A DNA stretch of 64,000 nt from a virus. Lineage: Duplodnaviria; Caudoviricetes. The stretch is from positions 128,001-192,000 of the IMG/VR virus record IMGVR_UViG_3300021979_000003, one strand, 5' to 3'. Positions 10,424 to 56,710 of this stretch are shown here, in pieces (within the stretch, counting starts at the first letter, position 1; every line of letters starts with the position of its first letter). The notes under the pieces are model-generated. The model worked only from the letters and a program-made list of their open reading frames with translations. It did not search any database and was not told where the DNA came from. The translations under genes were made by a program, and so were the position numbers.

Positions 10424-13400
10424 ATGGCTGATAAAAATATCAAGAATTTCCTTCCTTCGGTATTCCGTACAAATAAAATTAAAAACTTCATGGATTCAAC
10501 TTCGGAGACATTGTTCAGTGACAATAACTCCGAGAATAAATCTTATTTTGTTGGTAGACGTGTAGGTGGACTTTACGATCCACTAAGCGATTACTATGCT
10601 CAAGAAATTAATAAGATCAGGGAAAACTATCAGCTTGAACCATCGCTTGTTATTCGTGATAAAGACACCAGTGAAGTAAATGATGTTCTATTTTACGAAG
10701 ACCTTCTAAGAAGTCTTGAAAACTCAGGATCACAAGTAAGTGATCATTCTCGTCTATTTGCTTCTACGAAGTTTTCTTATGCACCACCTATCGACATGGA
10801 TATGTTTATCAATTACTCAGACTACTACTGGTATCCAGAAGGTGGTTTCGAAATTCGTGTTGATGCTAATCCATCTGATTTAGAAGGAAGAATTGCAGCC
10901 ACTGTACGTATCATCGAAACTAGTGAACCACTAGAAGTATCTACGGGTATGCATTTAGAGCTAAACGACAATAACATTTATATTGTTGAAGGTGTTGGTA
11001 CATATATTCGCTTGATTGAGTTTGATCCAGATAATAATAAGCCATTCAAAATAGACCGTGTGTACAATGTCACACAGACTTCCAATGATGTTATTGAAAG
11101 GTTCCCTGCTGAATACATCACTATGGAGCGTGGTGCAAATGATAAAAACCCATGGTCCAGAAATAATTCTTGGTATCACAAGGATGTTATTAATAAAATA
11201 ATCGGTCAGAGCAGATTCCTAGCAGAAAGAAGCCGTAGGGCACAGCGTCCAATAATTTGTTTTAGACGCGACCTTGAGCTTTATAACTATGGTAATCATT
11301 TTGATTTTGTTAAATCAATTGATACTACTTTATCTACATCTATGGATGGCGCAAACATTGAATCTGGTGATAAAGTAATAATCAACGGTGATTCTAACAT
11401 ATATCAATATGATGGTTCTGCATTCTTGAGCGTAGCGCAAGCAAACCATGATGATAAAGTTACTATCTATGATGGAAATAACAAAGCTGATGAATTTAAG
11501 TGGGATTCTATTGAAGATGATTGGGTTCTATGTCAACGAAAGTTAGAAGTAAACCAACCGATCCTTTTCAATATTTACGATTCGAATGATGAGAACGCTA
11601 CGCTAATTTCTGATGAGTTCAAGTACCCGAACAGTTCATTTGATGGCTGTGAAATATTCCGTTACGCTAGGTCTTCTACTAGTCTTGAAGACCCTGTTCT
11701 TGGATTTGGTATTAGATATAAAGCTTTCCGTGAATCCTCAGATATTGTATTTGAGAACGCTATGTCTGATACTTGTACATACGAAATCGGTGGCGAAACG
11801 CGTACAATACAAAATGGTTTCTATAAAGTAAACAACCCCAATAACATTGAAAGAAATAATATTATTAAATTTACTATCGGAAAAGATTATACTACTGGTA
11901 ATCCTGTAGTTTATATCAATGGTAGACAGCAACGTAATATTGTTTTGAAGGCCAACACACAATACCGTTTGGATTATACCGACAGTAGTACTACTGTACG
12001 TGGATGGTATGAAAATTACAGTCCTATTGAAATTTTGGATGAGACTGGAAGTCAGGTTATTCGCCCAACACATGCAGATTCCTCAAAGAATGATGTTCTT
12101 TATACATTTAATGAAACTTCTGCTGGTGGATATGTCTATAAGACCTCTTATTACGAAGGTCGTATCTATGTAGTTAATGAGACAGTAGAAGATTTTTATT
12201 TCGAAAACTCATGGATTGAATCAGAAGACACAAATATAACATTAAAATTAGAAAAACTAGTTACTGATGAAAATGATTTAGAAGTTAAGCTTTCATATAC
12301 TCCAAGAAATGATAACGCAATTCGTGTTACATACAATGGCGATGTATTGGGTAAATCATCTTATTACTTTTCAGTAGATAGTGTGTTCATTACAGATATT
12401 GAGGGTGAAGTTGAGAAAGGCGATTATATTGAAGTCTTTTACACTACTAATGATCCGGTGAGTAATGAATCTGAAGAAATTCAGATGGTTCACCCTAGTT
12501 TGAATAATAACCCCAATAACGATGATATTGAAGATTTCGCTTTCTCTGAAGTGTTTGATCAGTTCCGTTCTATTATTAGAAACCAACCGTTTCTTAAAGG
12601 TACGGCTCTAACTGATAACAATTTCCGAGATACTATCAAGGATGGCTCTTTAGGTACTTCTATTCTAAAACACAGTGCGCCAATGGTCCCACTAATGTTT
12701 GCAAACCTATCAGATGAAGCTGACGTTGTTGAAGCAATCATCAGCGCAAAGGATTACTATAATAACTTTAAAAATTCATTGATCGTTGAATCAGATGAGT
12801 TTAACAGAAACAACGATATAACAAACGAGAATGTTAGAGATATCTTTGATGATATTGTTGCGTCTATTAACTCTGGTCGTCGTAAAACAGACCCTTATGC
12901 ATATTCATACATGTTTGCAACATACAACAAATATACAAACGTTACCTTTGATGCATCTGGTGTCGCTAGTGAGTACCTTGACATAGATATTGATTCGAAC
13001 GAGTTATATATCTACACGCAAGACGGTTTAAGATTAATTGATATCGATTACCGTATTGAAAACGATAGCTCTACCTTAACAACTACACTAGTTCCATTAA
13101 CGTTCAGTATAGAAGATATTATTGAATCTCGTTATTACCAAGAAATGGAACCATCCTTCTGTGCGCCCACTCCTATGAAGTTTGGTCTTGATCGTCCAAA
13201 GCGCCCAGAAATTATTAAAGATGAAACTTATCTTTCTGACAAGTACTTTATTATAGGCCATGATGGATCGAAATTCTTAGCATACTCATCTGAAGATCAA
13301 ATTAACTCAGGTGAGCTAGACGGTAGAGACTTGTTGGTGCTTGAACTTGAGAAAAGAATCTATAATGGTATACGTCCTGAGTTCAAAGACGAAAGTAAGT

Positions 13401-16400
13401 TTATCATTAACTTAAGTGATGTAACACCTTCTTACTATAAAGAATTGTCAGTAACTAAACAGTTTGTTGAAGATGTAGAGTTCAGATTCTTCAGCAAATG
13501 GTGTAATGATAATAATATCAACTATACTGCTAATGATACGTTCGATATCAACAATGAATTAACTTATAACATACCAAGATTTGAAACTGATAATGGCGTT
13601 GTAATAAGCGGTCATTGGAAATCTATCTATCAATATTTCTATGGTACTGTTACTCCTAATAAAACACCGTGGGAAATGCTTGAGTTTAAGATAAAGCCTT
13701 CATGGTGGGAATCAGAATATGGCACTGACTATTCAAGCAATAACACTCAGATGTGGAGTGATATCGAACAGGGTATTGTGAGACAAGGTGTGCGTGAGAA
13801 CCTAGCGTTTGATGCGTATAAATCTTCCACAAACCGTCTAAGAAAAGATGGGTTGATGCAAATTCTCCCTGTAGATTCCAATGGTGATTTACGTACAGTG
13901 AGTGATATAGGACTGGTTGATAGTTCTACCTTTAATTATTATCAAATTAAACGTGAATGGTCATTCGGTGAATATGGACCGGTAGAACAGGCATGGAGAA
14001 ATAGTTCAGATTACAGCTTCGTTAAGCAAGCGCTGTTTTATATTTCTAAACCTCTACAGTATATCACAGAGGCTTGGGATACTGAACTAAGCTTTAATCT
14101 TCCAGTGGGTAACGTTCATAAGCCTTCTGAAATGGGCGTACACTCTTTTGTGGAGAATAGCACTAATTTTAATTACGTTGCTGGTGTGTCACAGTGGCTA
14201 TACTCTTACCTACAGGTAAAGAATCTTTCTGGTGAAAGATTGCTACGTGATAGATTTTATGAATCAGATATTCAACTGTCACATAAAGCTGGTGGATTTA
14301 TCGATTCAACTAATATTAATATTTCTACAGAAACGTTCAACCCACGTTCTGATAGTACGGTCACTAATATTCCAACAGAAGACATTAGTGTCCTTTTACA
14401 TGAAAGTAAAGACATTAAAACTGAAACTTATAGTGGTGTTCTAGTTGAGCGTGTGGACGCAGACAAAACTTTCTATAATTTCAATGAAGGTCAAATTTAT
14501 GATATCAATGAAGTAGTTTATAATACAAATGATAAAAACTATTATAAGCTGGTTTCAGATCATAAAAGCTATCCTGATTTTGAACCATTTACTCTATATG
14601 TCACTGGACGCGTAGTTAAGTATGCAAATAGATTATATGTCTGTCTGGAAGACTATAGAAGCGATGATCAAGAGTTCCCCAATAATAGTTCTAAGTGGAA
14701 ACTAAGAGGTTTCGTAGCAAATGATTGGGCACTATTAACAGGTAAGCCTTCTGCGAAAACTACATACTTCAAGGTATATGGTTACGATCTATATGATTCT
14801 GGATTTAGAACAATACCAGCTAGTGATACGTCACGCGATATTGAAATTACTGTACCAACCGTGGACAGTAAGCAAGTTCCTGTAGTTAATTGGGAACCAA
14901 ATAAGCAATTCTATACTGGTCAATATGTAAGAATTAATGACGGTAACCTTTTTGCGTGTAGAAGGGATCATGTATCTTCTGAAGTTTTTGACACTCAGCT
15001 ATGGGTTAGAAGTGATAAACTACCATTTACTAATATGGCTAGTGTGAATGTTAAAACTGAAGGTTCTAATAAAGTTTCTTACGTTCCTTATGGTACTGTG
15101 TTTAGAACCACACGAGAAGTATCAGAATTCCTTATGGCTTATGGAAGATATCTAGAGAGTCGTGGATGGAAATTTGATTCTTTCGACTCAAGCAGAAATA
15201 AATTTAAAAATTGGAAATTATCCGTAGAAGAGTTTATTCGTTGGGCTTATGAAAATCAATCTGCTGGAAGTGTAATTGGTTTATCTCCTATCTCAGAAGA
15301 TATTAAATTCTCTGCGAGTCACGGTGTTCCAAGTATCACCCGCAATAAAATCAATACTCCGGTAACTCTTATTGGACCAAAGGGTAATATTATTGACCCT
15401 AAGAACGCTGAATATAACCGCTCTGGTGGTATCTACCACGTAATGGCTGGCGAACCAGTGTTCTTCTGTAAGCTCTCTATTAAAGAGTATGAGCATATCA
15501 TTACGGTTAACAATAGAACTGTGTTCAATGATGTAATTTATGATCCAGAATTGGGTATACGTAAAGACCGTCTAAAAATCCGCACCCTTAAGACTAAAGG
15601 ATGGGATGGACGTTTACGTGCAGAAGGTTTCATTGTGACCGGTGATAAAATTTTACCTAACTTTGAAACGTCTGTTTCCGATATTAAATCTATTTCGGAT
15701 AAAGATGTCATTTCTATCCAAGATATATACAACCGCCTGAAGTATCACAACTTTGGTTACGAACAGCGTTCATACCTTGAAGGTCTTTCTATGGACGCCA
15801 AGGCACAGATATCCTTCTATGAAGGGTTTGTGCGTCAGAAAGGCACCTCAGAAGCGTTCCAGAGGCTATTACGATCTTCTGAGCTAGATGTTAGTGGTGA
15901 TATGAAAATCAACGAAGAGTGGGCGTTTAAGCAAGGCACATTCGGTTCTGTTGAGACTGATCAGCGTGTGGAAATTCTATTCGATAACACAGATATGAAA
16001 TCCACACCACAGGCAGTGTATCTTGAATATAAGCAAGAATTTGAAAACAAAAAAGCGACAGATGTATATGTAGACATTGAAGATAGAGATAAGTGGATCA
16101 CAAAACCAAAATCTCTGGTTGATGGAAATATATTCGTTGAAACGAAATTCAATAACGTCAAAAAGTATCCAACCGCTGGATATGTCCGCTGGTCAGATGC
16201 TGACTTTAAAGCATTTACTTTAAAAGGATTGGGGGCATCTATTAGAGAATCGAATCGTTCTATTGTGGAAGGTATGAGAGCTTGGATTGCTAAAGATAGT
16301 TCAGAGCAGTATGGATGGAACGTTTACCATAGCTCTTTTGTTAATGTAACGGTTGACGAAATTATTACACTTGGTAGAAATTCCGTTTCCAGTGCGGTGC

Positions 16401-19400
16401 TAAGACTTTCTGGTGATGTTAATGAAGATTATGTGTATGGTATATATGACGGTGGATACAACTATACATTTAAATTAACTAAAATTGATCCAAACGATAA
16501 CGTTTATATCATGTTAAGCTTCGATGAAGAAATGTATACAACATTTGAATCATCCGAAGATTTGACTTCACTAAATCAATTGCAGTTTGTGCGTTGGGTT
16601 CCAAGTCGAATCAATATGTTCTATCACCAGTTCTTTGATGATGTACAAGATACTATTGATACTTTTATTGGTAATATTGCACACTCTCCAAGTGATGGTT
16701 ATAGACTATACATTGATATAACCAACAGCCCTGTTTCTTACAAGGCAGAAGTTATGAATAGTAACCCTTATGAATACTGGTCTTTTGATAGTAATTCATA
16801 TGCAGGTATGAATGGCAATAACTTTAGTCAACAGGATTCATCATCTGTACCGTCTGACGTTATCAACAACTATAATTCACTGGTGAGTGATGGAACTACG
16901 TTTAGTCCAGCTAGTGATGAATGGCCTAATATGATTTGGTCAGATTTAGGCTCAACCACAGAAAACACTAAAACAATCGAGTTTTGGTTTGAATATGATG
17001 AGACTGTTAGATTTACCGAAGATATGTCCCATAGCTATCCGATTGCTGCGATAGTTCAGAGAGATACTACTGGTGAAGTTGTCTCTACCCATATTGGCGT
17101 ATATCCAGATACGGATAATGAAACTAACGATTATCGTGTGATTCATACAATTGATGGAAACCTAGAATACAGTTCTTCTATACCTCTAGAAAACGGTATG
17201 AACCATTGTGTACTTACTGTAGATAATGGTCCTTCTGGTAATACAATTAAAACTGTAATTAATGGTACAGTAGTTGATGAGGTAAGTTCAATTAACGGTA
17301 TTGTACAGAACACCACCCATAGTGTATTTGTCGCTTGTGTTGATAATCATCAAAGCGGCGATGACATGCCAATGGTTGATGAACTAGCATTCTATGAAAG
17401 CTCACTTTCTATTATCGATATACAATCGCACTATCGCTCTGGTATTGCAGGACTGGTAGCGTCGAACGAAGAAAAATGGGGAGTATTTGAATATAACTCT
17501 GGTTCTTGGTCTGTCGTTTATGAAGAGAAACCTGTTATTGATACTGACATGATCCATGAGTGTTTAATATACAACACTGAAGATAGCTCATATATCGACA
17601 ATGTTAAGATACATGATCCAGTTAAAGGATACTTTGCTGGTGCACCTATTCAAGACATCGATTACATCACTGAGTACGATCCTGTAGACTACAATTCTGG
17701 TACAGAAAATTACAGTGCGTGGGGTAGCAACAAAGTAGGTACTGTATGGTGGGATACATCTACCATGAGATACCTAGAGTATGAAAACGGTACTAGTGAA
17801 GACAGAATAAACTTCTGGGGTACATTATTCCCACAGAGTACTATAGATGTATATGAGTGGAGACAATCTACTGTAGTTCCTTCTGAATACGAAGGAACTG
17901 GTACACCATACACAACTGAAGAATATGTGTTTGAAGATGTTTATGATGAAGAAACTAATGAAACTACGAGATTCTACTTCTTCTGGGTTAAGAACACCAG
18001 TGGTATTCCTGAGAATACAAATAGAACTAGTAGCATCGTTAATATTTCAAACTCAATTAGGTATCCTGATAACAATGGTGTTCCTTATATCAATTTTATT
18101 AATAATGAATGCATTCTACTAAACGATAACACAAATGTTATGGTTCAGAATGACTTTGTACTTCAGATTGAATATGAAACCAATAAAGATGATATTGACA
18201 CACATACTCAATGGACTCTAGTATCTGAAGATGAAAGAGAAGATGAAATTCCAGATTTCCTATTCAACAAAATGATTGATAGCATTCTTGGATACACTGA
18301 AGAAGATGTGAACGGTATTGTACATCAAATACCTGACGTGAACCTTTCTGAGTCAAAGAAATATGGAAACCTACAATTCCCTCGTCAAACATGGTTTATT
18401 AATACTAAAGAGGCACGTAGAAACTTCTTTGAAGCTATCAACGAAGCTTTAGAGGGTATTAACATTTGGGATGTCGAACTATTCTGGGAAGAATTAAATG
18501 AAGATGTCCTACGTGATACGAAATACTTTGGACTAATTGATTGGTATAAAGAAGGCTATGACCCGTTAACTATAGTTTCCAACTTGGTTAATAAACGTGT
18601 TGATATTCTAACAACACCACTAAATGATGGTGAGTATATCAAAGTGAACGAATCTGTAGGAAGAATGCCTTCAGTATACGAAAGTGGATTTACTATCTAT
18701 CAGTATCATTCTGATATTAATAGTTATGAAAAAGTAGGACAATCTCGTGCAGAATTGAAGTTCAAAGAAGCCTTCTATGTTGATGATATAAGTCAAGAAG
18801 ATGCTGCTAAAATACGCGATATTCTAGGAATTGTTTTCGAAACGTTCTTGGGTAAACAACGTCCAGAGTTTATTAATAAGATTTTCTACACTATGGTTAG
18901 ATATGTAATCAGTGAACAGCCAACAAATGATTGGGTGTTCCCAACGACTTACATAAACATCAACCAAGAGTCTAGAAGCTTAATTAAGAAGCGTGTTTAT
19001 CAGGATGACAAAGAAGAAGAAATTATTGGATATGTTACTGAAGCAAAACCTTTCCATACTAAGCTAAGGGAAATTAATAAAATTGCTACAGGTGATATTG
19101 AATACAATGGTTTCTATGTTACTGATTTTGATAAACCCCCGTATCTAACTGATTCGAGAGAAATTATCAATATTCAAGAAGAAACTATTGATACTATTCC
19201 GTACAAGAAAGACTTGTACTACAACCTAAGCATTCGAAATGCAAAACCTGTTGAATACTGGCCGATGAATGTGAAGTATTCACCAAGCACTATCGAAGGT
19301 GAATTTGGCGTTAACTTCTATAACAGAGATAGTGATTTCGTTGCTAAACCTAGTGGTATCTGTTTCAACAACGGTTTCGAACTGCTTGGACCATATAGCA

Positions 19401-21787
19401 CTGATCCTATTACACTTGAATCCAGTAAGATAACGATGGAAGCTTGGTTATATGGTCATGACATTGATATTCTAAACGGTCAGAGTTCATATGAAGTGAT
19501 GTCTATAAACGTCACTAACAGCGATAATCCATCCGATAGCGTGGTTTATAAAGTAGTGATGCTAGACAACGCAGGCACAGTAGAATATCGCGTACAGGCG
19601 TTCAGAGGCAACGTACCGTACCTTGATGAGGTTGTTACCCTGACACCAAACGTCATGAACTACTTCGTTTTTGGTATTGATAATTCATCAACTAATACTA
19701 AGTTGAATCTATCAATAAACCGTGATAACTATGTTACATATAACTTAGGAAACTTTATCAATGTTAATGGATTCTATGATGTATCACTTAATATAGGTAG
19801 TACTGATGTTCATTATTTCTATGATGAATTCGCACTTTATGATAGACCGCTTGATATTCAAACGGTAGAAGACCATTACGATTATGCAAGTGAGTCTGTA
19901 CCTCAAAGAGTGTTTAAGCTTGAAAACTACCATGATCCTGATAGTACAAACGTGTTTATCGAAGGCGTTCTTCTCCCGAAGAATGAGTACAGTATCATTA
20001 ACAATGAACTACGATTAGTTAATGAGCCACCACGTGCTTACAGACATGTTTCTAACGTGGTTGTTAAATCAACTAATATTGCCGATGATAGAATATTGTC
20101 TGAATATGATCAGGCACGTGGCTACTATGGTGTGAACAAAAACGATTTAAATGAATGGATGATGACTGTTAACCAGAAGCGTACACACGCCATGTTTGAC
20201 CGTATTTCTGTCTTACCTTCTCTTCCATTAGAAGACTTGGTGACACGCTATAATGATGTGTTAAGTTCAGAAACACCACTAGAAGAATTCAGTAACCAGT
20301 CTTACAAGTTCAAGGGATTCAATGGACGTAAGTTTACTGAAACTGATCGTATAGTGACAAACATGTACTTTGATGATCTAACTGTGTTAGTTAGCGAGTC
20401 GTATGTTGAAACAGTAAACGCTCCTATAAAGAAGAACTTCAACATTGGTGATTCTTTCTCTGAGGATAATATTGCTGTATTTGTTAACGATGATCTTGTA
20501 GAACCAAGACATTACAACACTTCAATCGATTCTGGTACATCTGAAATCACCGTATCAATGTTATTTGATGTGAAAAAGAATAGTAAGTTTACGGTTAGAC
20601 CTAAAGACAAATATGAAGACCTTATGTTCAAGGTCGCACATCACCGTGGAGTGGGTATACCGTTCAGAAATCTTGATGAAATAAAAGAAATAGGTTTCAA
20701 GGTAGACGAAAATACTTATCCAGTTAAAATTGATACCAATGGAGAGTTAATTCTTGACTCTGATTATATCGAAATGGTTGAAGACACAGGTCATGATGTT
20801 AGCTTAGACGTTCTATATTCTGAGTTCGATGATGTGACCGCAGATATTAAAAATGCTGATAAGTTCCTTCGAAATGCTGAAGAAGCTATACCCGAAGAAA
20901 GAACTGACTTGAACTTAAAAGAAGCACTTGTGTTTACGTTCAAGACTAACTTGAAGATAATTCAGAGAGGATATGAAACAGGATCAGGCTTTGATATATT
21001 TGACACAGTAAGCTTTACAGCGTCTGGTGGAGAAACCGAATACCCAATCACACTAGGATCAATACCTAAAGAACAAATCCTTGTATTGGTTAATGAAGAC
21101 GAATGGGTTATGGACGGTGAATATACCAACGATCAGCATCATTATAGTGTTGAGCCTGATAAAATTGTTTTCAATAAGCAGTTGAGAAATAATGACAAGG
21201 TTATTATTACTGATAGGTATTCTGCGTTTGATCAATATCGCGGTACGCAAATGTTTATTCATAAAAATATTCAAGCGGGCGGTTACGATGGCGACATGGT
21301 TATGCCTGACTTCATGAATGATAGTGAAGATCGCCGTGAATTTATCATCTATACACAGGATGGTAGAGTACATGCGTTTGAATGTCCAGAATCTGAGGCA
21401 ATAACAGTTAATGGTTCGGTAACATATGCACAAGAATCTATCGAACTAACAGGCAATGTTTCTGATAGCATGAAACTTGCTAATAAAGATCAAGGTAAAA
21501 TTGCCGTGGTTTATGGCGAGGAAATAGATGGTTCAGGAAAGCTAGTTAGTAGTCGATGTGAATTCATCCACTATACACAAGCAGATGGCAATGTTATTGA
21601 AGGAATAAAGCGTGGCCTGTTTGGTAAAAATCCAAAGGATTTCGATAGCAATAAATATAATATAAAGGTATATCCATTAACAATTGATGATAGCCTACCA
21701 AGTTTCACAATAACAGAGCCTTATCTAGGAGTTAGAGGAAAAGCATCTTATCCTAAATATGGTCATATAATGAGTGGTAAAGATTAA
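10424..21787 (+). CDS. Giant virion structural protein, 3787 aa, probably baseplate-associated, with chitin-binding-type and LamG-like modules
   Basis: Uninterrupted 11.4-kb ORF with SD GGAG and a late promoter; W/Y-rich ChtBD3-like repeats at about 14480-15010; two D-E-x-A-x-Y...L...I..HY LamG-like ends. Confidence 0.75.
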   Translation: MADKNIKNFLPSVFRTNKIKNFMDSTSETLFSDNNSENKSYFVGRRVGGLYDPLSDYYAQEINKIRENYQLEPSLVIRDKDTSEVNDVLFYEDLLRSLENSGSQVSDHSRLFASTKFSYAPPIDMDMFINYSDYYWYPEGGFEIRVDANPSDLEGRIAATVRIIETSEPLEVSTGMHLELNDNNIYIVEGVGTYIRLIEFDPDNNKPFKIDRVYNVTQTSNDVIERFPAEYITMERGANDKNPWSRNNSWYHKDVINKIIGQSRFLAERSRRAQRPIICFRRDLELYNYGNHFDFVKSIDTTLSTSMDGANIESGDKVIINGDSNIYQYDGSAFLSVAQANHDDKVTIYDGNNKADEFKWDSIEDDWVLCQRKLEVNQPILFNIYDSNDENATLISDEFKYPNSSFDGCEIFRYARSSTSLEDPVLGFGIRYKAFRESSDIVFENAMSDTCTYEIGGETRTIQNGFYKVNNPNNIERNNIIKFTIGKDYTTGNPVVYINGRQQRNIVLKANTQYRLDYTDSSTTVRGWYENYSPIEILDETGSQVIRPTHADSSKNDVLYTFNETSAGGYVYKTSYYEGRIYVVNETVEDFYFENSWIESEDTNITLKLEKLVTDENDLEVKLSYTPRNDNAIRVTYNGDVLGKSSYYFSVDSVFITDIEGEVEKGDYIEVFYTTNDPVSNESEEIQMVHPSLNNNPNNDDIEDFAFSEVFDQFRSIIRNQPFLKGTALTDNNFRDTIKDGSLGTSILKHSAPMVPLMFANLSDEADVVEAIISAKDYYNNFKNSLIVESDEFNRNNDITNENVRDIFDDIVASINSGRRKTDPYAYSYMFATYNKYTNVTFDASGVASEYLDIDIDSNELYIYTQDGLRLIDIDYRIENDSSTLTTTLVPLTFSIEDIIESRYYQEMEPSFCAPTPMKFGLDRPKRPEIIKDETYLSDKYFIIGHDGSKFLAYSSEDQINSGELDGRDLLVLELEKRIYNGIRPEFKDESKFIINLSDVTPSYYKELSVTKQFVEDVEFRFFSKWCNDNNINYTANDTFDINNELTYNIPRFETDNGVVISGHWKSIYQYFYGTVTPNKTPWEMLEFKIKPSWWESEYGTDYSSNNTQMWSDIEQGIVRQGVRENLAFDAYKSSTNRLRKDGLMQILPVDSNGDLRTVSDIGLVDSSTFNYYQIKREWSFGEYGPVEQAWRNSSDYSFVKQALFYISKPLQYITEAWDTELSFNLPVGNVHKPSEMGVHSFVENSTNFNYVAGVSQWLYSYLQVKNLSGERLLRDRFYESDIQLSHKAGGFIDSTNINISTETFNPRSDSTVTNIPTEDISVLLHESKDIKTETYSGVLVERVDADKTFYNFNEGQIYDINEVVYNTNDKNYYKLVSDHKSYPDFEPFTLYVTGRVVKYANRLYVCLEDYRSDDQEFPNNSSKWKLRGFVANDWALLTGKPSAKTTYFKVYGYDLYDSGFRTIPASDTSRDIEITVPTVDSKQVPVVNWEPNKQFYTGQYVRINDGNLFACRRDHVSSEVFDTQLWVRSDKLPFTNMASVNVKTEGSNKVSYVPYGTVFRTTREVSEFLMAYGRYLESRGWKFDSFDSSRNKFKNWKLSVEEFIRWAYENQSAGSVIGLSPISEDIKFSASHGVPSITRNKINTPVTLIGPKGNIIDPKNAEYNRSGGIYHVMAGEPVFFCKLSIKEYEHIITVNNRTVFNDVIYDPELGIRKDRLKIRTLKTKGWDGRLRAEGFIVTGDKILPNFETSVSDIKSISDKDVISIQDIYNRLKYHNFGYEQRSYLEGLSMDAKAQISFYEGFVRQKGTSEAFQRLLRSSELDVSGDMKINEEWAFKQGTFGSVETDQRVEILFDNTDMKSTPQAVYLEYKQEFENKKATDVYVDIEDRDKWITKPKSLVDGNIFVETKFNNVKKYPTAGYVRWSDADFKAFTLKGLGASIRESNRSIVEGMRAWIAKDSSEQYGWNVYHSSFVNVTVDEIITLGRNSVSSAVLRLSGDVNEDYVYGIYDGGYNYTFKLTKIDPNDNVYIMLSFDEEMYTTFESSEDLTSLNQLQFVRWVPSRINMFYHQFFDDVQDTIDTFIGNIAHSPSDGYRLYIDITNSPVSYKAEVMNSNPYEYWSFDSNSYAGMNGNNFSQQDSSSVPSDVINNYNSLVSDGTTFSPASDEWPNMIWSDLGSTTENTKTIEFWFEYDETVRFTEDMSHSYPIAAIVQRDTTGEVVSTHIGVYPDTDNETNDYRVIHTIDGNLEYSSSIPLENGMNHCVLTVDNGPSGNTIKTVINGTVVDEVSSINGIVQNTTHSVFVACVDNHQSGDDMPMVDELAFYESSLSIIDIQSHYRSGIAGLVASNEEKWGVFEYNSGSWSVVYEEKPVIDTDMIHECLIYNTEDSSYIDNVKIHDPVKGYFAGAPIQDIDYITEYDPVDYNSGTENYSAWGSNKVGTVWWDTSTMRYLEYENGTSEDRINFWGTLFPQSTIDVYEWRQSTVVPSEYEGTGTPYTTEEYVFEDVYDEETNETTRFYFFWVKNTSGIPENTNRTSSIVNISNSIRYPDNNGVPYINFINNECILLNDNTNVMVQNDFVLQIEYETNKDDIDTHTQWTLVSEDEREDEIPDFLFNKMIDSILGYTEEDVNGIVHQIPDVNLSESKKYGNLQFPRQTWFINTKEARRNFFEAINEALEGINIWDVELFWEELNEDVLRDTKYFGLIDWYKEGYDPLTIVSNLVNKRVDILTTPLNDGEYIKVNESVGRMPSVYESGFTIYQYHSDINSYEKVGQSRAELKFKEAFYVDDISQEDAAKIRDILGIVFETFLGKQRPEFINKIFYTMVRYVISEQPTNDWVFPTTYININQESRSLIKKRVYQDDKEEEIIGYVTEAKPFHTKLREINKIATGDIEYNGFYVTDFDKPPYLTDSREIINIQEETIDTIPYKKDLYYNLSIRNAKPVEYWPMNVKYSPSTIEGEFGVNFYNRDSDFVAKPSGICFNNGFELLGPYSTDPITLESSKITMEAWLYGHDIDILNGQSSYEVMSINVTNSDNPSDSVVYKVVMLDNAGTVEYRVQAFRGNVPYLDEVVTLTPNVMNYFVFGIDNSSTNTKLNLSINRDNYVTYNLGNFINVNGFYDVSLNIGSTDVHYFYDEFALYDRPLDIQTVEDHYDYASESVPQRVFKLENYHDPDSTNVFIEGVLLPKNEYSIINNELRLVNEPPRAYRHVSNVVVKSTNIADDRILSEYDQARGYYGVNKNDLNEWMMTVNQKRTHAMFDRISVLPSLPLEDLVTRYNDVLSSETPLEEFSNQSYKFKGFNGRKFTETDRIVTNMYFDDLTVLVSESYVETVNAPIKKNFNIGDSFSEDNIAVFVNDDLVEPRHYNTSIDSGTSEITVSMLFDVKKNSKFTVRPKDKYEDLMFKVAHHRGVGIPFRNLDEIKEIGFKVDENTYPVKIDTNGELILDSDYIEMVEDTGHDVSLDVLYSEFDDVTADIKNADKFLRNAEEAIPEERTDLNLKEALVFTFKTNLKIIQRGYETGSGFDIFDTVSFTASGGETEYPITLGSIPKEQILVLVNEDEWVMDGEYTNDQHHYSVEPDKIVFNKQLRNNDKVIITDRYSAFDQYRGTQMFIHKNIQAGGYDGDMVMPDFMNDSEDRREFIIYTQDGRVHAFECPESEAITVNGSVTYAQESIELTGNVSDSMKLANKDQGKIAVVYGEEIDGSGKLVSSRCEFIHYTQADGNVIEGIKRGLFGKNPKDFDSNKYNIKVYPLTIDDSLPSFTITEPYLGVRGKASYPKYGHIMSGKD

Positions 21788-51417: not shown

Positions 51418-51885
51418 ATGACAAATAAAATGCCTAGAAGAATAACAAGCGACATGCTTTTTGATAACTCATTTAAAGATTTATTTAATATCTTTGATAG
51501 TGCACCTGCTTTTGGTATGAACAAAAGTGTGCCTCCATACCCACATTTTAACTTGACTAACCTAGACGAAGATGGACGCTATACAGTAGAAGTGGCTCTT
51601 GCTGGATTTGATAAAGATGATATTGCTGTTCGTTTTGAACCATATCAACAAAATCCAAACAGTGGTGTAAAAGTTCTTAAAATAGAAGCTTTACATAGCC
51701 ATAGCGAAGAAGAGGAAGGTTCTGGATACCTTCATCAAGGTATCGCAAAAAGGGATGCTAAGTTGTCTTTACTAACACATAAAACCGATAAGGTTGAGAA
51801 CTGTACTTATGAAAATGGTGTATTGTATATAACCATTAAAAAGACCGAGCCTGATAGTCAGGTCGAAAACATAGATATAATGTAA
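51418..51885 (+). CDS. Small heat-shock protein (Hsp20, IbpA-like)
   Basis: PPYPHFNL...YTVEVALAGF, YLHQGIA.R, and ENGVLYI.I. Confidence 0.92.
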   Translation: MTNKMPRRITSDMLFDNSFKDLFNIFDSAPAFGMNKSVPPYPHFNLTNLDEDGRYTVEVALAGFDKDDIAVRFEPYQQNPNSGVKVLKIEALHSHSEEEEGSGYLHQGIAKRDAKLSLLTHKTDKVENCTYENGVLYITIKKTEPDSQVENIDIM

Positions 51886-51890
51886 AAAGA

Positions 51891-51916
51891 AAAAGAGGGC
51901 AATGCCCTCTTTTTTA
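51891..51916. terminator. Bidirectional intrinsic terminator
   Basis: AAAAGAGGGC-AAT-GCCCTCTTTTTT. Confidence 0.9.
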
Positions 51917-52471
51917 TTGTTCCAAGAACCTATGCTCTCCAACGTCTCCTACTAAAATATAATGCTCTGCCCATGATGGGTTTGCAGTTTTATAGTTATA
52001 GTAGTGAGTGGCTTCACCAACCAACGGCTCGTACAAATCATGGTATGCATAAAATGATGCCAAGATAGATTCCCTCCAAGCATTCTTTTCAAGAACATTC
52101 ACTTCACCTGACTTAGTATGAAGTTGAATAGTATCAGGGACACCATCACAATACCAGCTATACCAGCACTCGTTTTTAATTGGATTACCTTTTGAATCAA
52201 TATTAGAGCGCTTTACAATACCACAGACATTTGAATAACGGCGAAACTCACCTTCTTCGTCATGTACGCGATTCATTACCGCTTGGGCTACTGCCACCTT
52301 ACTCTCAAAATCTTCACCACGTGTTTCATGGTATGTATTGATAGTGAGACAGTAAAGCTCTTGTGCATACTGCGGTTCTGGTGAGTAATTATGCATTGGC
52401 TCTACGTCTGTAAGAAACGCCTGCCCAAAGATTGTAATCAAATTAAAAAACATAGCTTCTGCAAGATTCAT
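51914..52471 (-). CDS. SleB-family cell wall hydrolase (Hydrolase_2)
   Basis: CL..NTYHETRGE, AVAQAVMNRV, YSW.CDG, GEATHYY, P.WA and GEHRF; hydrophobic N-terminus; TTGTAA-N17-TATAAT upstream (52497-52525). Confidence 0.9.
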   Translation of the reverse strand: MNLAEAMFFNLITIFGQAFLTDVEPMHNYSPEPQYAQELYCLTINTYHETRGEDFESKVAVAQAVMNRVHDEEGEFRRYSNVCGIVKRSNIDSKGNPIKNECWYSWYCDGVPDTIQLHTKSGEVNVLEKNAWRESILASFYAYHDLYEPLVGEATHYYNYKTANPSWAEHYILVGDVGEHRFLEQ

Positions 52472-52528
52472 AAGTCTCTCCATCAGTAATATAATTATTA
52501 TACTACCTTGGTTTTAAAATTACAATAC

Positions 52529-53002
52529 TTAGAGTGGTTTTGCTTCAATAGAAACGATTTCATACTCAATAGTATTGGGTCCAATATTGATTTCAAATGC
52601 GTCATCAACACGAAGCCCCATCATTTCACGTCCAACTGGACTAGTGTAACTAATCATGCCTTTCGAAGGATCGCTTTCTACACTACCTACGAGGCGGTAA
52701 ACAACTTCCTGATCTGTATCAATGTTAACAAGGGTTACGACAGAACCCACTGTTACTTTGTCCGTTTGAATAGTAGTGACATCAACGACTGTTGCATTAG
52801 ACATGATGTCTTTTAGTTCACTATATTGCTTTTGTAATGAATCATAACGCTGGTTATATTCATTGGTTTCTGTGTTGTCTTCGGTAGAAAGGGAGTTATC
52901 ACGAACCTCTTTCATTTCCACCATAACGTTTTTCATTTCTTCCTGTAGGGCGTCCATACGCTTTTTCAAAATACCAACACCATACTGTGTAATAACATTC
53001 AT
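52529..53002 (-). CDS. GreA/GreB-family RNA polymerase secondary-channel factor with atypical tip
   Basis: SNATVVD, V.VGS.VTL.N.D, YRLVG..E.D....IS..SP.G..MMG...D align with GreA. Confidence 0.85.
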   Translation of the reverse strand: MNVITQYGVGILKKRMDALQEEMKNVMVEMKEVRDNSLSTEDNTETNEYNQRYDSLQKQYSELKDIMSNATVVDVTTIQTDKVTVGSVVTLVNIDTDQEVVYRLVGSVESDPSKGMISYTSPVGREMMGLRVDDAFEINIGPNTIEYEIVSIEAKPL

Positions 53003-53039
53003 AAAGTTTTTCTCCAATTTAAAGATTATATTTATTGAA

Positions 53040-53858
53040 TTAAATCAATTTTAGATAATTTACAATTTCGGGTTTGATTTCTTCGTTAATAACGGTAAAC
53101 GATTCATCAAGTATGTCACTTTTCATTAATCTGAGAAGTGTTTTATTTTTAGATTGTTTCACTGATTCAATGAATGAATAGAAAGATTTGTTATAGTCTT
53201 CAATTGCAATCTTAAGCATTTCGTTTGTATTCTTTCCATCATTGACAATAGACGAAGTAAACGATTCAAGGTGGGTTTTACCTTCAGTTTCAACATTTTC
53301 ATCACGTAAGGATTCTAGTTCACCAATACTAGAATAGGTATACTCTAGTACTTCAAAAGCTAAACGTGCTATATCTTCACAGTCATACGATGAAATTTGA
53401 AACACTTTTGCTAGTTGTGGAGTGAATGCAATTAAAGCGGATACTTTTGCCACATTAGCGTCTTTTGTTGATGCATATATGGTATACCCAACGACGTTGA
53501 TTGCAAAAGACAAACCTTCTATTGCATCACCGGTTTCTGTCACATGTTTGAAATTCTGGTAGTATTCAGAATCCACATGAGAAGGAAATAGGAATTTAAA
53601 AATCTGTAGGAAGCGAAATACTTCATAACCATTTGGATCACCCTGCTTACTTACTACAGCTTGGGCTAGAATCCTTTTCTTATGGTTATTAAGAACAAAG
53701 AAACATGAATGCAAAATAAACTCATCGACCATTTCAGTTTCTGAGATAGATTTTTCAAACATATATGACGTGATTTTCGATTTGATGTTTTGTGGTGTCA
53801 GCCTTGCTGTATAAATCAGCTTGCCCCAAAAGTCTTTACTCTCTTCATTAAAATTCAT
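53040..53858 (-). CDS. Hypothetical protein, 272 aa
   Basis: SD GAGG; long ORF. Confidence 0.7.
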   Translation of the reverse strand: MNFNEESKDFWGKLIYTARLTPQNIKSKITSYMFEKSISETEMVDEFILHSCFFVLNNHKKRILAQAVVSKQGDPNGYEVFRFLQIFKFLFPSHVDSEYYQNFKHVTETGDAIEGLSFAINVVGYTIYASTKDANVAKVSALIAFTPQLAKVFQISSYDCEDIARLAFEVLEYTYSSIGELESLRDENVETEGKTHLESFTSSIVNDGKNTNEMLKIAIEDYNKSFYSFIESVKQSKNKTLLRLMKSDILDESFTVINEEIKPEIVNYLKLI

Positions 53859-53872
53859 ATAACAACCTCATT

Positions 53873-53896
53873 AAAAAAGAACCGCATTGCGGTTCT
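53873..53896 (-). terminator. Intrinsic terminator
   Basis: Minus strand AGAACCGC-AAT-GCGGTTCT followed by a T-run. Confidence 0.85.
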
Positions 53897-55281: not shown

Positions 55282-56649
55282 TTAATTTGCATAATCGTCG
55301 TAATAGAGAGTAGTACCGAAGGGAGCTTTTACCTTATTGCTGATCGCATAGCGGTCATGAATAAGGAAAACCGTTTCACAGTACTCAGGATCGCCCCAAG
55401 AGTCCCATGGCATACCATCTGTGAGCATGATAAAGGTTTCAGGCTGAATATCTTCTTCTTCGAAGAACCTCCAACAGCACATGAAATCAGTACCACCACC
55501 ACCTTTCGGGTTGTATGACAGAAGGTCATCAATAGTGTCCTGTGTAAACTCTTCATAGTTGTACACCTTAGTATCGAAAGTGAAGATACCAATCTTGAAG
55601 GACATGAACGCGTCTGCAATAGAGTAGATTTCACTCAGGAAGTCCCGCAATTGCTCATTGCTCATAGAGCCAGAAGCATCGATACCAATGACAAAATCAA
55701 AGTGATCATCAACGGTCAGGCTTGGCAGCATGATACGCTGTGACATGTAACGACGGTTTAGACGCTTCCATGTGTAATCACTAGTAACCTGTGACTTGGC
55801 AGTTTCACGAACAATGTCACGCCAGTTCATTTTAGGTTCAACAAGCTGTTCGATTAGGCGTTCTACCTCGGCAGGAACCTTACCAGCCTTCTTGCCGACA
55901 TCAGCAGCCTGCATAATGGTAGACGTAATTTCGTTTTCGATTTCAGACGCTTCACTTTCGCTGATAGTCATAGAGCCACCAGAACCATCCTGATCGCCAT
56001 CACCGTCTTCACCGTCACCGGAACCATCACCAGATACGTCTACTTCAATATGATCATCGAAGTTACCACCGGCACCGGGGCCGCTACCAGCATTGCCAGA
56101 ACCGCCACCTTCGCCGGAACCACCGCCGCCGTTTTGCTGAGCTTGTTGGTACAGTTCTTCATACAGGTCTTCAGTTGTACGGTTACCATAGCTTTCTTCG
56201 TACAGGCCACCTACGGAAGGGAAACGACCAACATTATCACGTACAAGAATGTAGTTAATGATGTAGTCACCTGCATAGTTCCAGATTTTCGGATCACGCT
56301 TACCACGACGTGTAAGGTGGCGAAGAACACAATGCATAACCTCGTGTGCTACAAGAAACACAAGCTCTTCGTCATCCAGAGCATCAATGAAGCACGGATT
56401 GTAATAGAAGTTGCGGCCATCTACAGCGGCAGTTTTAATAACCTTGTGGTCCTTCTCAACGCCTTTAAGCTGTAGGTTAATTGCGATAGTGCCATAGAAA
56501 GGCTCTTTCTGTAGTAGACGAATACGGGTTACAAGAAGACGAGAATGAACCGCACGTTCATCAACATCCTTTTCGTAATCGACTTCTTTGGTTGCTTCAC
56601 CAATCTTGGCATGAAGCATTGCCGATTTGTTACTTAGTACGTTATGCAT
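55282..56649 (-). CDS. Metallopeptidase-like (HExxH) plus VWA-domain protein (DUF2201-type MoxR partner)
   Basis: TAAVDG, AHEVMHCVLRH, WNYAGDY.IN, MIDAS DxSxS (DASGS), GGGGTDF, MLTDG; start at MHNV (SD GGAG). Confidence 0.88.
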   Translation of the reverse strand: MHNVLSNKSAMLHAKIGEATKEVDYEKDVDERAVHSRLLVTRIRLLQKEPFYGTIAINLQLKGVEKDHKVIKTAAVDGRNFYYNPCFIDALDDEELVFLVAHEVMHCVLRHLTRRGKRDPKIWNYAGDYIINYILVRDNVGRFPSVGGLYEESYGNRTTEDLYEELYQQAQQNGGGGSGEGGGSGNAGSGPGAGGNFDDHIEVDVSGDGSGDGEDGDGDQDGSGGSMTISESEASEIENEITSTIMQAADVGKKAGKVPAEVERLIEQLVEPKMNWRDIVRETAKSQVTSDYTWKRLNRRYMSQRIMLPSLTVDDHFDFVIGIDASGSMSNEQLRDFLSEIYSIADAFMSFKIGIFTFDTKVYNYEEFTQDTIDDLLSYNPKGGGGTDFMCCWRFFEEEDIQPETFIMLTDGMPWDSWGDPEYCETVFLIHDRYAISNKVKAPFGTTLYYDDYAN

Positions 56650-56710
56650 AGTTATCTCCAACTTTTGTTTCAACTACTATGGTGTATTTAAACATAGTTT
56701 AGACTTGATG

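Follow-up and report, generated by a model that had tools for sequence, protein, structure and literature searches.

A GreA-type protein with a conserved, apparently rearranged coiled-coil tip, encoded behind a late-promoter-like element in an uncultured giant T4-like phage

The window, a 64,000-nt stretch of DNA, is part of a 239-kb IMG/VR record (36% G+C) that is about 54% complete and represents an uncultured giant T4-like phage with a GreA-type gene of its own. The Gre-family gene occupies positions 52529-53002 on the minus strand (157 codons, with the stop codon at 52529-52531) and encodes an intact product, P0001, of 157 aa, compared with 158 aa for Escherichia coli GreA. The ORF finder had listed the gene as 52529-53017 on the minus strand with a TTG start. 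Since this TTG sits within the ribosome-binding site AAATTGGAG, the true start is, from its sequence context, the ATG at 53002; the homologues all open with M-x-[VI]-I-T-Q, which supports this assignment. A Shine-Dalgarno GGAG (53012-53015, minus strand), read from the sequence and invariant in relatives, lies 9 nt before the ATG.

The neighbors of gre on the same strand encode an orphan 272-aa product, a 409-aa protein with HTH and metallophosphatase regions (PHROG 'exonuclease'), and a DUF2201 metallopeptidase/VWA protein; no neighboring gene suggests a transcription module around gre. The orphan ORF (53040-53858) had no Pfam or PHROG match and no visible promoter of its own. It is preceded by a strong terminator-like hairpin (53878-53896, minus strand; AGAACCGCAATGCGGTTCT followed by TTTTTT), and its ribosome-binding site and ATG lie within a few bases of this hairpin. 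The DUF2201 gene (55282-56673, minus strand) encodes a putative metallopeptidase and VWA-like protein with a Gly/Ser/Asp-rich insert; the PHROGs label 'HNH endonuclease' for this family looks like a mis-annotation. An Hsp20-type small heat-shock protein (51418-51885, plus strand) and a SleB-type cell-wall hydrolase (Pfam Hydrolase_2; 51914-52483, minus strand) are also encoded nearby. A sigma70-like promoter (TTGTAA-17-TATAAT; 52525-52497) belongs to the hydrolase gene and lies immediately behind the gre stop codon.

A late-promoter-like element, AATAAATA, is located at 53029-53036 (minus strand), with its end 26 nt upstream of the gre ATG; the T4 consensus is TATAAATA. The first-pass annotation had taken this element as a hint of late expression, and our analysis strengthened that view, as the motif was found genome-wide and was conserved in relatives. 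The ATAAATA core was invariant in five related loci despite diverged flanks, and the two most distant of the five (L004 and L008) carried a perfect TATAAATA, whereas the TATAAT overlapping the element in the window was not conserved in related loci. Across the whole record, the 70 nt before ORF starts were enriched about 17-fold for TATAAATA and about 13-fold for AATAAATA. The motif NATAAATA occurred 100 times in the genome, with 54 copies no more than 60 nt upstream of an ORF start and a commonest distance of 20-25 nt. Within the window alone there was no excess of late motifs (11 observed versus 9 expected), indicating that the position of the motif rather than its number carries the signal. 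Late expression of gre is thus a well-supported prediction from the promoter region, and read-through into gre from the genes upstream is possible.

Late motifs also precede structural genes in the window. One of them is a single ORF of 3787 aa (10424-21787, plus strand; 11.4 kb), with TATAAATA 29 nt upstream. Its first 690 residues match the PHROG category 'virion structural protein' (E 5e-95), and it illustrates how long late transcription units can be in this phage. A tail-fibre-like gene in the window bears the motif as well.

The C-terminal domain of P0001 had been described as clearly GreA-like, and the domain searches bore this out. Pfam PF01272 (GreA_GreB C-terminal domain) matched residues 79-153 with 88.3 bits (E 3.3e-25; cut-off 26.9), and the motifs E109-S-D111, S118, and S121-P122 aligned with E112-A-D114, S121, and S124-P125 of GreA. 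This globular domain comprises residues 76-157 (52532-52777, minus strand), and its invariant columns are common to bacterial GreA. The N-domain model PF03449 scored 20.7 bits, just under its cut-off of 24.5, and the match ran end to end (residues 3-72 on model positions 2-71 of 71); two close homologues, P0007 and P0009, have a precomputed PF03449 match. Among proteins of solved structure, phmmer ranked E. coli GreA first (1GRJ; E 3.6e-17) and Gfh1 and GreB next, and Rnk gave a weak match confined to the C-domain (E 0.011). No PHROGs family matched P0001 at E <= 0.001. The C4 zinc finger of DksA/TraR (PF01258) was absent among the Pfam matches of P0001 up to E 1, and zf-dskA_traR had no match anywhere in the 239-kb record. 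In the representative library, a 2740-aa protein (P0165) contained 14 separate Gre C-domain-like stretches, and several long fusion proteins, P0155 (371 aa), P0156 (488 aa), P0223 (410 aa), and P0236 (905 aa), ended in a C-terminal Gre module.

An AF2 model of P0001 built on 97 sequences had a mean pLDDT of 91.4, with only moderate values (about 79) in the tip region (residues 31-50). Residues 1-75 (52778-53002, minus strand) form an antiparallel coiled coil in the model, with DSSP helices at 6-36 and 44-69 and a loop at 37-43. A canonical GreA control with the tip SHGDLKENAEY (P0137), processed in the same pipeline, had helices at 8-37 and 46-70 and a loop at 38-45. Because the helix lengths match those of this control, the finger of the phage protein is predicted to be full length, unlike that of Rnk. 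Foldseek TM scores of the model were 0.76-0.79 to GreA, 0.78-0.80 to RNAP-bound Gfh1, and 0.73 to GreB; the flipped form that Gfh1 adopts when free scored 0.43.

Sixteen close homologues of P0001 were found, 59-96% identical and all 157-158 aa long; all are metagenomic, and some lie on contigs of 133-462 kb. An exhaustive profile search added eight more distant 50%-identity clusters (P0123-P0130), which, from the tree and SCTP-2 only, we infer to be phage genes. The only isolate with the gene was Salicola phage SCTP-2, whose gp168 (ASV44183.1; 41% identity) is annotated as a 'GreA-like protein'. A Megablast search of the 4-kb gre neighborhood against 50,697 phage records returned no match, and SCTP-2 was recovered by protein-level search only. 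Its gp168 belongs to the same clade, has the tip SLSTEDESE, and likewise has a DUF2201 metallopeptidase/VWA neighbor: the protein encoded in the window is 56% identical to SCTP-2 gp169, whose gene is directly upstream of gre in that phage, whereas the window has two extra genes between the DUF2201 gene and gre. The presence of the DUF2201 gene near gre in both phages indicates that a remnant of synteny survives. In a quick maximum-likelihood tree, the clade grouped together with one change for the clade label, and the branch uniting it with the long-branch P0209 had an SH-aLRT of 93.

The sequence RDNSLSTEDNTET that had been quoted for the tip is exact and corresponds to residues 34-46 of P0001 (R-D-N-S-L-S-T-E-D-N-T-E-T); the tip itself spans residues 37-46, S-L-S-T-E-D-N-T-E-T (52865-52894, minus strand), and the clade motif is [LS]-S-[STN]-[ED]-[DE]-x-x-[ED]. 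Among 12 non-redundant members of the clade, SCTP-2 gp168 included, Ser39 was invariant (12/12), and positions 41, 42, and 45 were acidic in all 12. The only other invariant residues of the N-domain were T5 and G8, plus D74 at the domain border. The mean column entropy was 1.26 bits in the tip versus 1.82 and 2.10 bits in the flanking helices; within the N-domain of the clade, no part is better conserved than the tip. The dN/dS ratios of gre versus its relatives were 0.01-0.07, with synonymous sites near saturation; against L005, for example, dN was 0.012 and dS about 1.5. In pairwise terms, the proteins of L005 and L006 are 98% identical to P0001, with pS 0.64 versus pN 0.012. Protein constraint on gre is unusually strong for such divergent DNA, and the tip that the first-pass annotation called rewired is therefore a conserved feature under purifying selection.

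The loop reads SLSTEDN in P0001 and HGDLKEN in GreA, and the GreA equivalent of each tip residue depends on the placement of a one-residue insertion. The register that we favor was obtained by phmmer against 1GRJ and by MAFFT with 27 and with 227 sequences: S39, E41, D42, N43, E45, and T46 correspond to D41, K43, E44, N45, E47, and Y48, respectively, and the loop has one extra residue. One MAFFT run differed, placing E41 under E44 and L38 under D41. The D41 equivalent is non-acidic in both of these registers (S39 or L38), and the E44 equivalent is acidic in both (Asp42 or Glu41). The pairing of N43 with N45 and of D42 with E44 follows from the AF2 models, since helix 2 begins right after the Asn in both the phage protein and the control. 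By eye, helix 2 has its hydrophobic heptad residues at 49, 53, 56, 60, 63, 67, and 70, at a constant offset of 2 from those of GreA (51, 55, 58, 62, 65, 69, and 72). In the favored register, the carboxylate spacing would change from i, i+3, i+6 (D41, E44, E47) to i, i+1, i+4 (E41, D42, E45), and Ser39 would stand in place of Asp41, with Glu41 as an additional carboxylate. Loss of D41, replacement of E44 by Asp, and loss of the conserved Tyr, all proposed from the sequence at the outset, hold in this register, the three positions being an invariant Ser, Asp42, and Thr or an aliphatic residue. The apex does carry acidic residues, though the two canonical positions are not both acidic.

Profile-profile alignment with hhalign, alone among the methods used, instead paired D42xxE45xxE48Y49 with D41xxE44xxE47Y48. 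On this reading nothing is rewired: Asp42-x-x-Glu45 would be Asp41-x-x-Glu44, Glu48-Tyr49 would be Glu47-Tyr48, and P0001 would be an ordinary GreA, with helix 1 one turn longer and helix 2 one turn shorter. Asp42 and Glu/Asp45 are then acidic in 12/12 members at the canonical i, i+3 spacing. However, this register requires a 4-residue insertion and a 3-residue deletion in a region of low column confidence, and Glu48 and Tyr49 are not conserved across the wider clade. Position 46 is I, V, or L in most of the wider clade, which suits the core Tyr48 rather than the invariant N-cap Asn45, and position 43 is N, S, T, or D in 11/12 clade members and is thus N-cap-like. In the AF2 models of both the phage protein and the control, the helix boundaries fit an ungapped helix-2 register and not that of hhalign, and the related P0191, whose tip GSSEDNSEY has no length change, aligns its Ser to D41 and its Asp to E44. 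We therefore consider an unrewired tip unlikely; in functional outcome, it overlaps with the cleavage-competent explanation considered below.

Asp41 is nearly invariant in canonical GreA, and D41/E44 were present in 184 of the 227 Gre-like sequences gathered, among which the serine-at-D41 class is essentially the phage clade. Three proteins in the representative library lack Asp41 and have Glu-Asp-Asn at 43-45, namely P0191 (GSSEDNSEY), P0251 (GCVEDNPEY), and P0269 (GNPEDNFEY). None had relatives among IMG/VR viral contigs, and none was found by tip pattern in 185,579 species genomes; P0191 was found on contigs under 9 kb only, and P0251 had only distant matches among phage records (at most 36% identity). 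Of the 12 Gre loci returned from those 185,579 genomes, the 10 translated were all canonical GDL[SK]ENAEY, matched via the other search pattern, and no bacterium with a G-x-x-E-D-N tip as its sole Gre was found. A metagenome scan used a pattern from the C-domain, and most of what it returned was therefore ordinary GreA of bacteria. A human-gut 'Bacteriophage sp.' match (MT835475) was rejected as clade-type, its tip being canonical.

P0001 shares with GreA (1GRJ) and GreB (2P4V, 6RI7) the two-domain fold, size, coiled-coil length, E-x-D and S..SP motifs, and an acidic residue at the E44 and E47 positions. It differs from GreA in its overall sequence (29% identity), an N-domain below the Pfam cut-off, and the extra loop residue; in the clade-wide changes of Asp41 to an invariant Ser and Tyr48 to Thr or an aliphatic residue; and, in P0001, in the changes of Lys43 to Glu and Glu44 to Asp. 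Unlike GreA and GreB, it is phage-borne and encoded behind a late promoter. Gfh1 (2F23, 3AOH) and Mycobacterium tuberculosis Rv3788 share the Gre fold and an acidic tip, and P0001 resembles Gfh1 in its lack of canonical D-x-x-E chemistry and in its similarity to the RNAP-bound form. However, its tip, S-T-E-D-N-T-E, has no four-Asp cluster like that of Gfh1 (DDYDD), and identity is only 20-23%; Gfh1 has a pH-driven domain flip and is restricted to Deinococcus-Thermus, and Rv3788 keeps both canonical acidic residues. E. coli Rnk (3BMB), which competes for the secondary channel, has a Gre-like C-domain, but its coiled coil is much shorter and cannot reach the active site.

In the acidic hairpin of TFIIS/TFS (RSADE motif), which likewise tips a finger that enters the RNAP pore, a Ser stands two residues before adjacent carboxylates (S-A-D-E, compared with S-x-[ED]-[ED] here); TFIIS is a eukaryotic/archaeal zinc-ribbon protein with a beta-hairpin and no homology to Gre, so the likeness may be read as analogy only. 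The acidic pair of TFIIS, D290/E291, is likewise adjacent. Lambda Orf73 and F TraR are comparable as regulators of host RNAP that are encoded by mobile elements and act through the secondary channel; TraR-like proteins differ in belonging to the DksA family with its zinc finger.

As to which polymerase P0001 would act on, the gene for a gp55-like late sigma of 374 aa lies some 5 kb past the end of the window (G000:C1:197160-198284; L086:1291-2415, minus strand). The protein matched phrog_12791 ('sigma factor for late transcription') with E 4.5e-80 and T4 gp55 weakly. At twice the length of T4 gp55 (185 aa), it has its gp55-like part at residues about 211-332, and its large N-terminal extension had no Pfam match. 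Searches with Pfam models, which very divergent phage RNAPs could escape, gave no Rpb1 or Rpb2 match in the 239-kb record; in SCTP-2, whose complete genome measures 440 kb, no Rpb1 match was obtained. SCTP-2 also has a gp55-like sigma match and has been grouped with Atu_ph07, XacN1, and Rak2-like phages, a group with a T4-like late sigma, in published work (PMC6102473, PMC5852040). Given the gp55-like sigma, the lack of a detected phage RNAP, and the retained C-domain motifs, which all Gre factors have in common, the most likely target of the phage Gre, as we infer it, is host RNAP via the secondary channel.

A site of action elsewhere, either on an undetected divergent phage RNAP or in another role such as that of a packaged virion protein, appears very improbable. 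The record is only about 54% complete, and phiKZ-type phage RNAPs escape Pfam models, which makes the absence of RNAP domains weak evidence. However, P0001 retains the Gre C-domain motifs common to bacterial GreA, a sigma of the gp55 type implies that the host core is employed, and, in the portions of the descriptions of the SCTP-2/Atu_ph07 group that we consulted, the late sigma is named and a phage RNAP is not mentioned (PMC6102473).

The Gre protein would almost certainly dock into the host polymerase. Its C-domain would probably sit on the beta-prime rim helices, and its finger would reach the active site via the secondary channel. There, Glu41, Asp42, and Glu45, together with Ser39, would replace the canonical Asp41/Glu44/Glu47 arrangement. 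Sequence does not decide whether such a tip cleaves, because activity does not follow from which carboxylates a tip has or lacks. Our preferred reading is that cleavage is retained, at somewhat below even odds (a probability of about 0.45): the adjacent Glu-Asp pair might promote transcript cleavage and release from arrest much as the Asp-Glu of TFIIS does, and Gre would keep host RNAP moving along long late units, such as the 11.4-kb virion gene, on replicating DNA. In its favor, the coiled coil is full length, and its apex carries three carboxylates (E41, D42, and E45) in 12/12 members. The acidic pair of Gre factors fixes the second catalytic Mg2+ (PMC3105419, PMC7527559), and the RSADE module of TFIIS enhances cleavage (PMC4100922). 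Against it, the loss of Asp41 argues for altered chemistry, and the E. coli GreA double mutant D41A E44Y is without antipause activity (PMC7527559).

A non-cleaving occupant of the secondary channel is also a serious candidate, to which we give rather less than an even chance; what probability remains falls on other roles. Such a protein would bind host RNAP like GreA and be unable to position the catalytic Mg2+ or water, acting either as an inhibitor of the Gfh1/Rv3788 type or as a competitor that excludes host DksA, GreA, and GreB and so reprograms transcription. The invariant Ser at the D41 position and the changed carboxylate spacing favor it, the fact that a non-canonical tip has been kept for so long suggests that activity has changed, and a plain duplicate seems unnecessary in a host that already has its own Gre factors. 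Gre-fold proteins are able to inhibit or compete: Gfh1 and Rv3788 have conserved acidic tips yet inhibit and do not cleave, and Rnk, whose finger is short, competes for RNAP (PMC4598747). RNAP II is inhibited by a TFIIS mutant deficient in cleavage, an effect for which the authors invoke trigger-loop displacement (PMC3105419), and TraR-like proteins such as lambda Orf73 provide a phage precedent for action through the secondary channel (PMC9239242). In the phmmer alignment, E41-D42 fall at the second of the two Asp-Asp pairs in the tip of Gfh1. However, the four-Asp cluster of Gfh1 is missing from P0001, late transcription of the phage itself depends on host RNAP and would be blocked too by a general catalytic inhibitor expressed late, and a competitor of the Rnk type would not need a full-length finger with the tip as its most conserved segment.

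The first-pass annotation had proposed a secondary-channel modulator of host RNAP rather than a cleavage factor. The secondary channel of host RNAP is indeed the likely target, but the exclusion of cleavage is unsupported, given the three carboxylates conserved 12/12 at the apex, the adjacent pair of TFIIS, and the cost that a late inhibitor would carry. A bolder proposal, which we hold to be improbable, is that Gre proteins with the S-x-[ED]-[ED] tip form a functional class of their own, specific to phages, with either a convergent TFIIS-like cleavage activity or selectivity for particular states of RNAP; a selective factor might rescue late RNAP bound by gp55, gp33, and the clamp, and block RNAP on host genes or exclude host DksA/Gre.

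The GreA-like annotation of SCTP-2 gp168 was already known; the SCTP-2 annotation and the literature searched do not discuss the gene or its tip. Gre factors are the textbook example of proteins supplying RNA polymerase with catalytic residues, and Asp41 and Glu44 are treated as their defining residues. A phage lineage that keeps the Gre scaffold, apparently shifts the carboxylates, and fixes a Ser would constitute a natural experiment on the tip geometries that the bacterial active site accepts. If P0001 is an ordinary cleavage factor, the result is a modest one: a giant phage would carry a gene of housekeeping type, and the variant of the tip would be a tolerated one. Since gp168 comes from a cultured phage isolate with a known host, SCTP-2, these readings are directly testable. 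The protein would add a Gre-fold member to the short list of phage secondary-channel factors, of which TraR-like proteins are the known examples.
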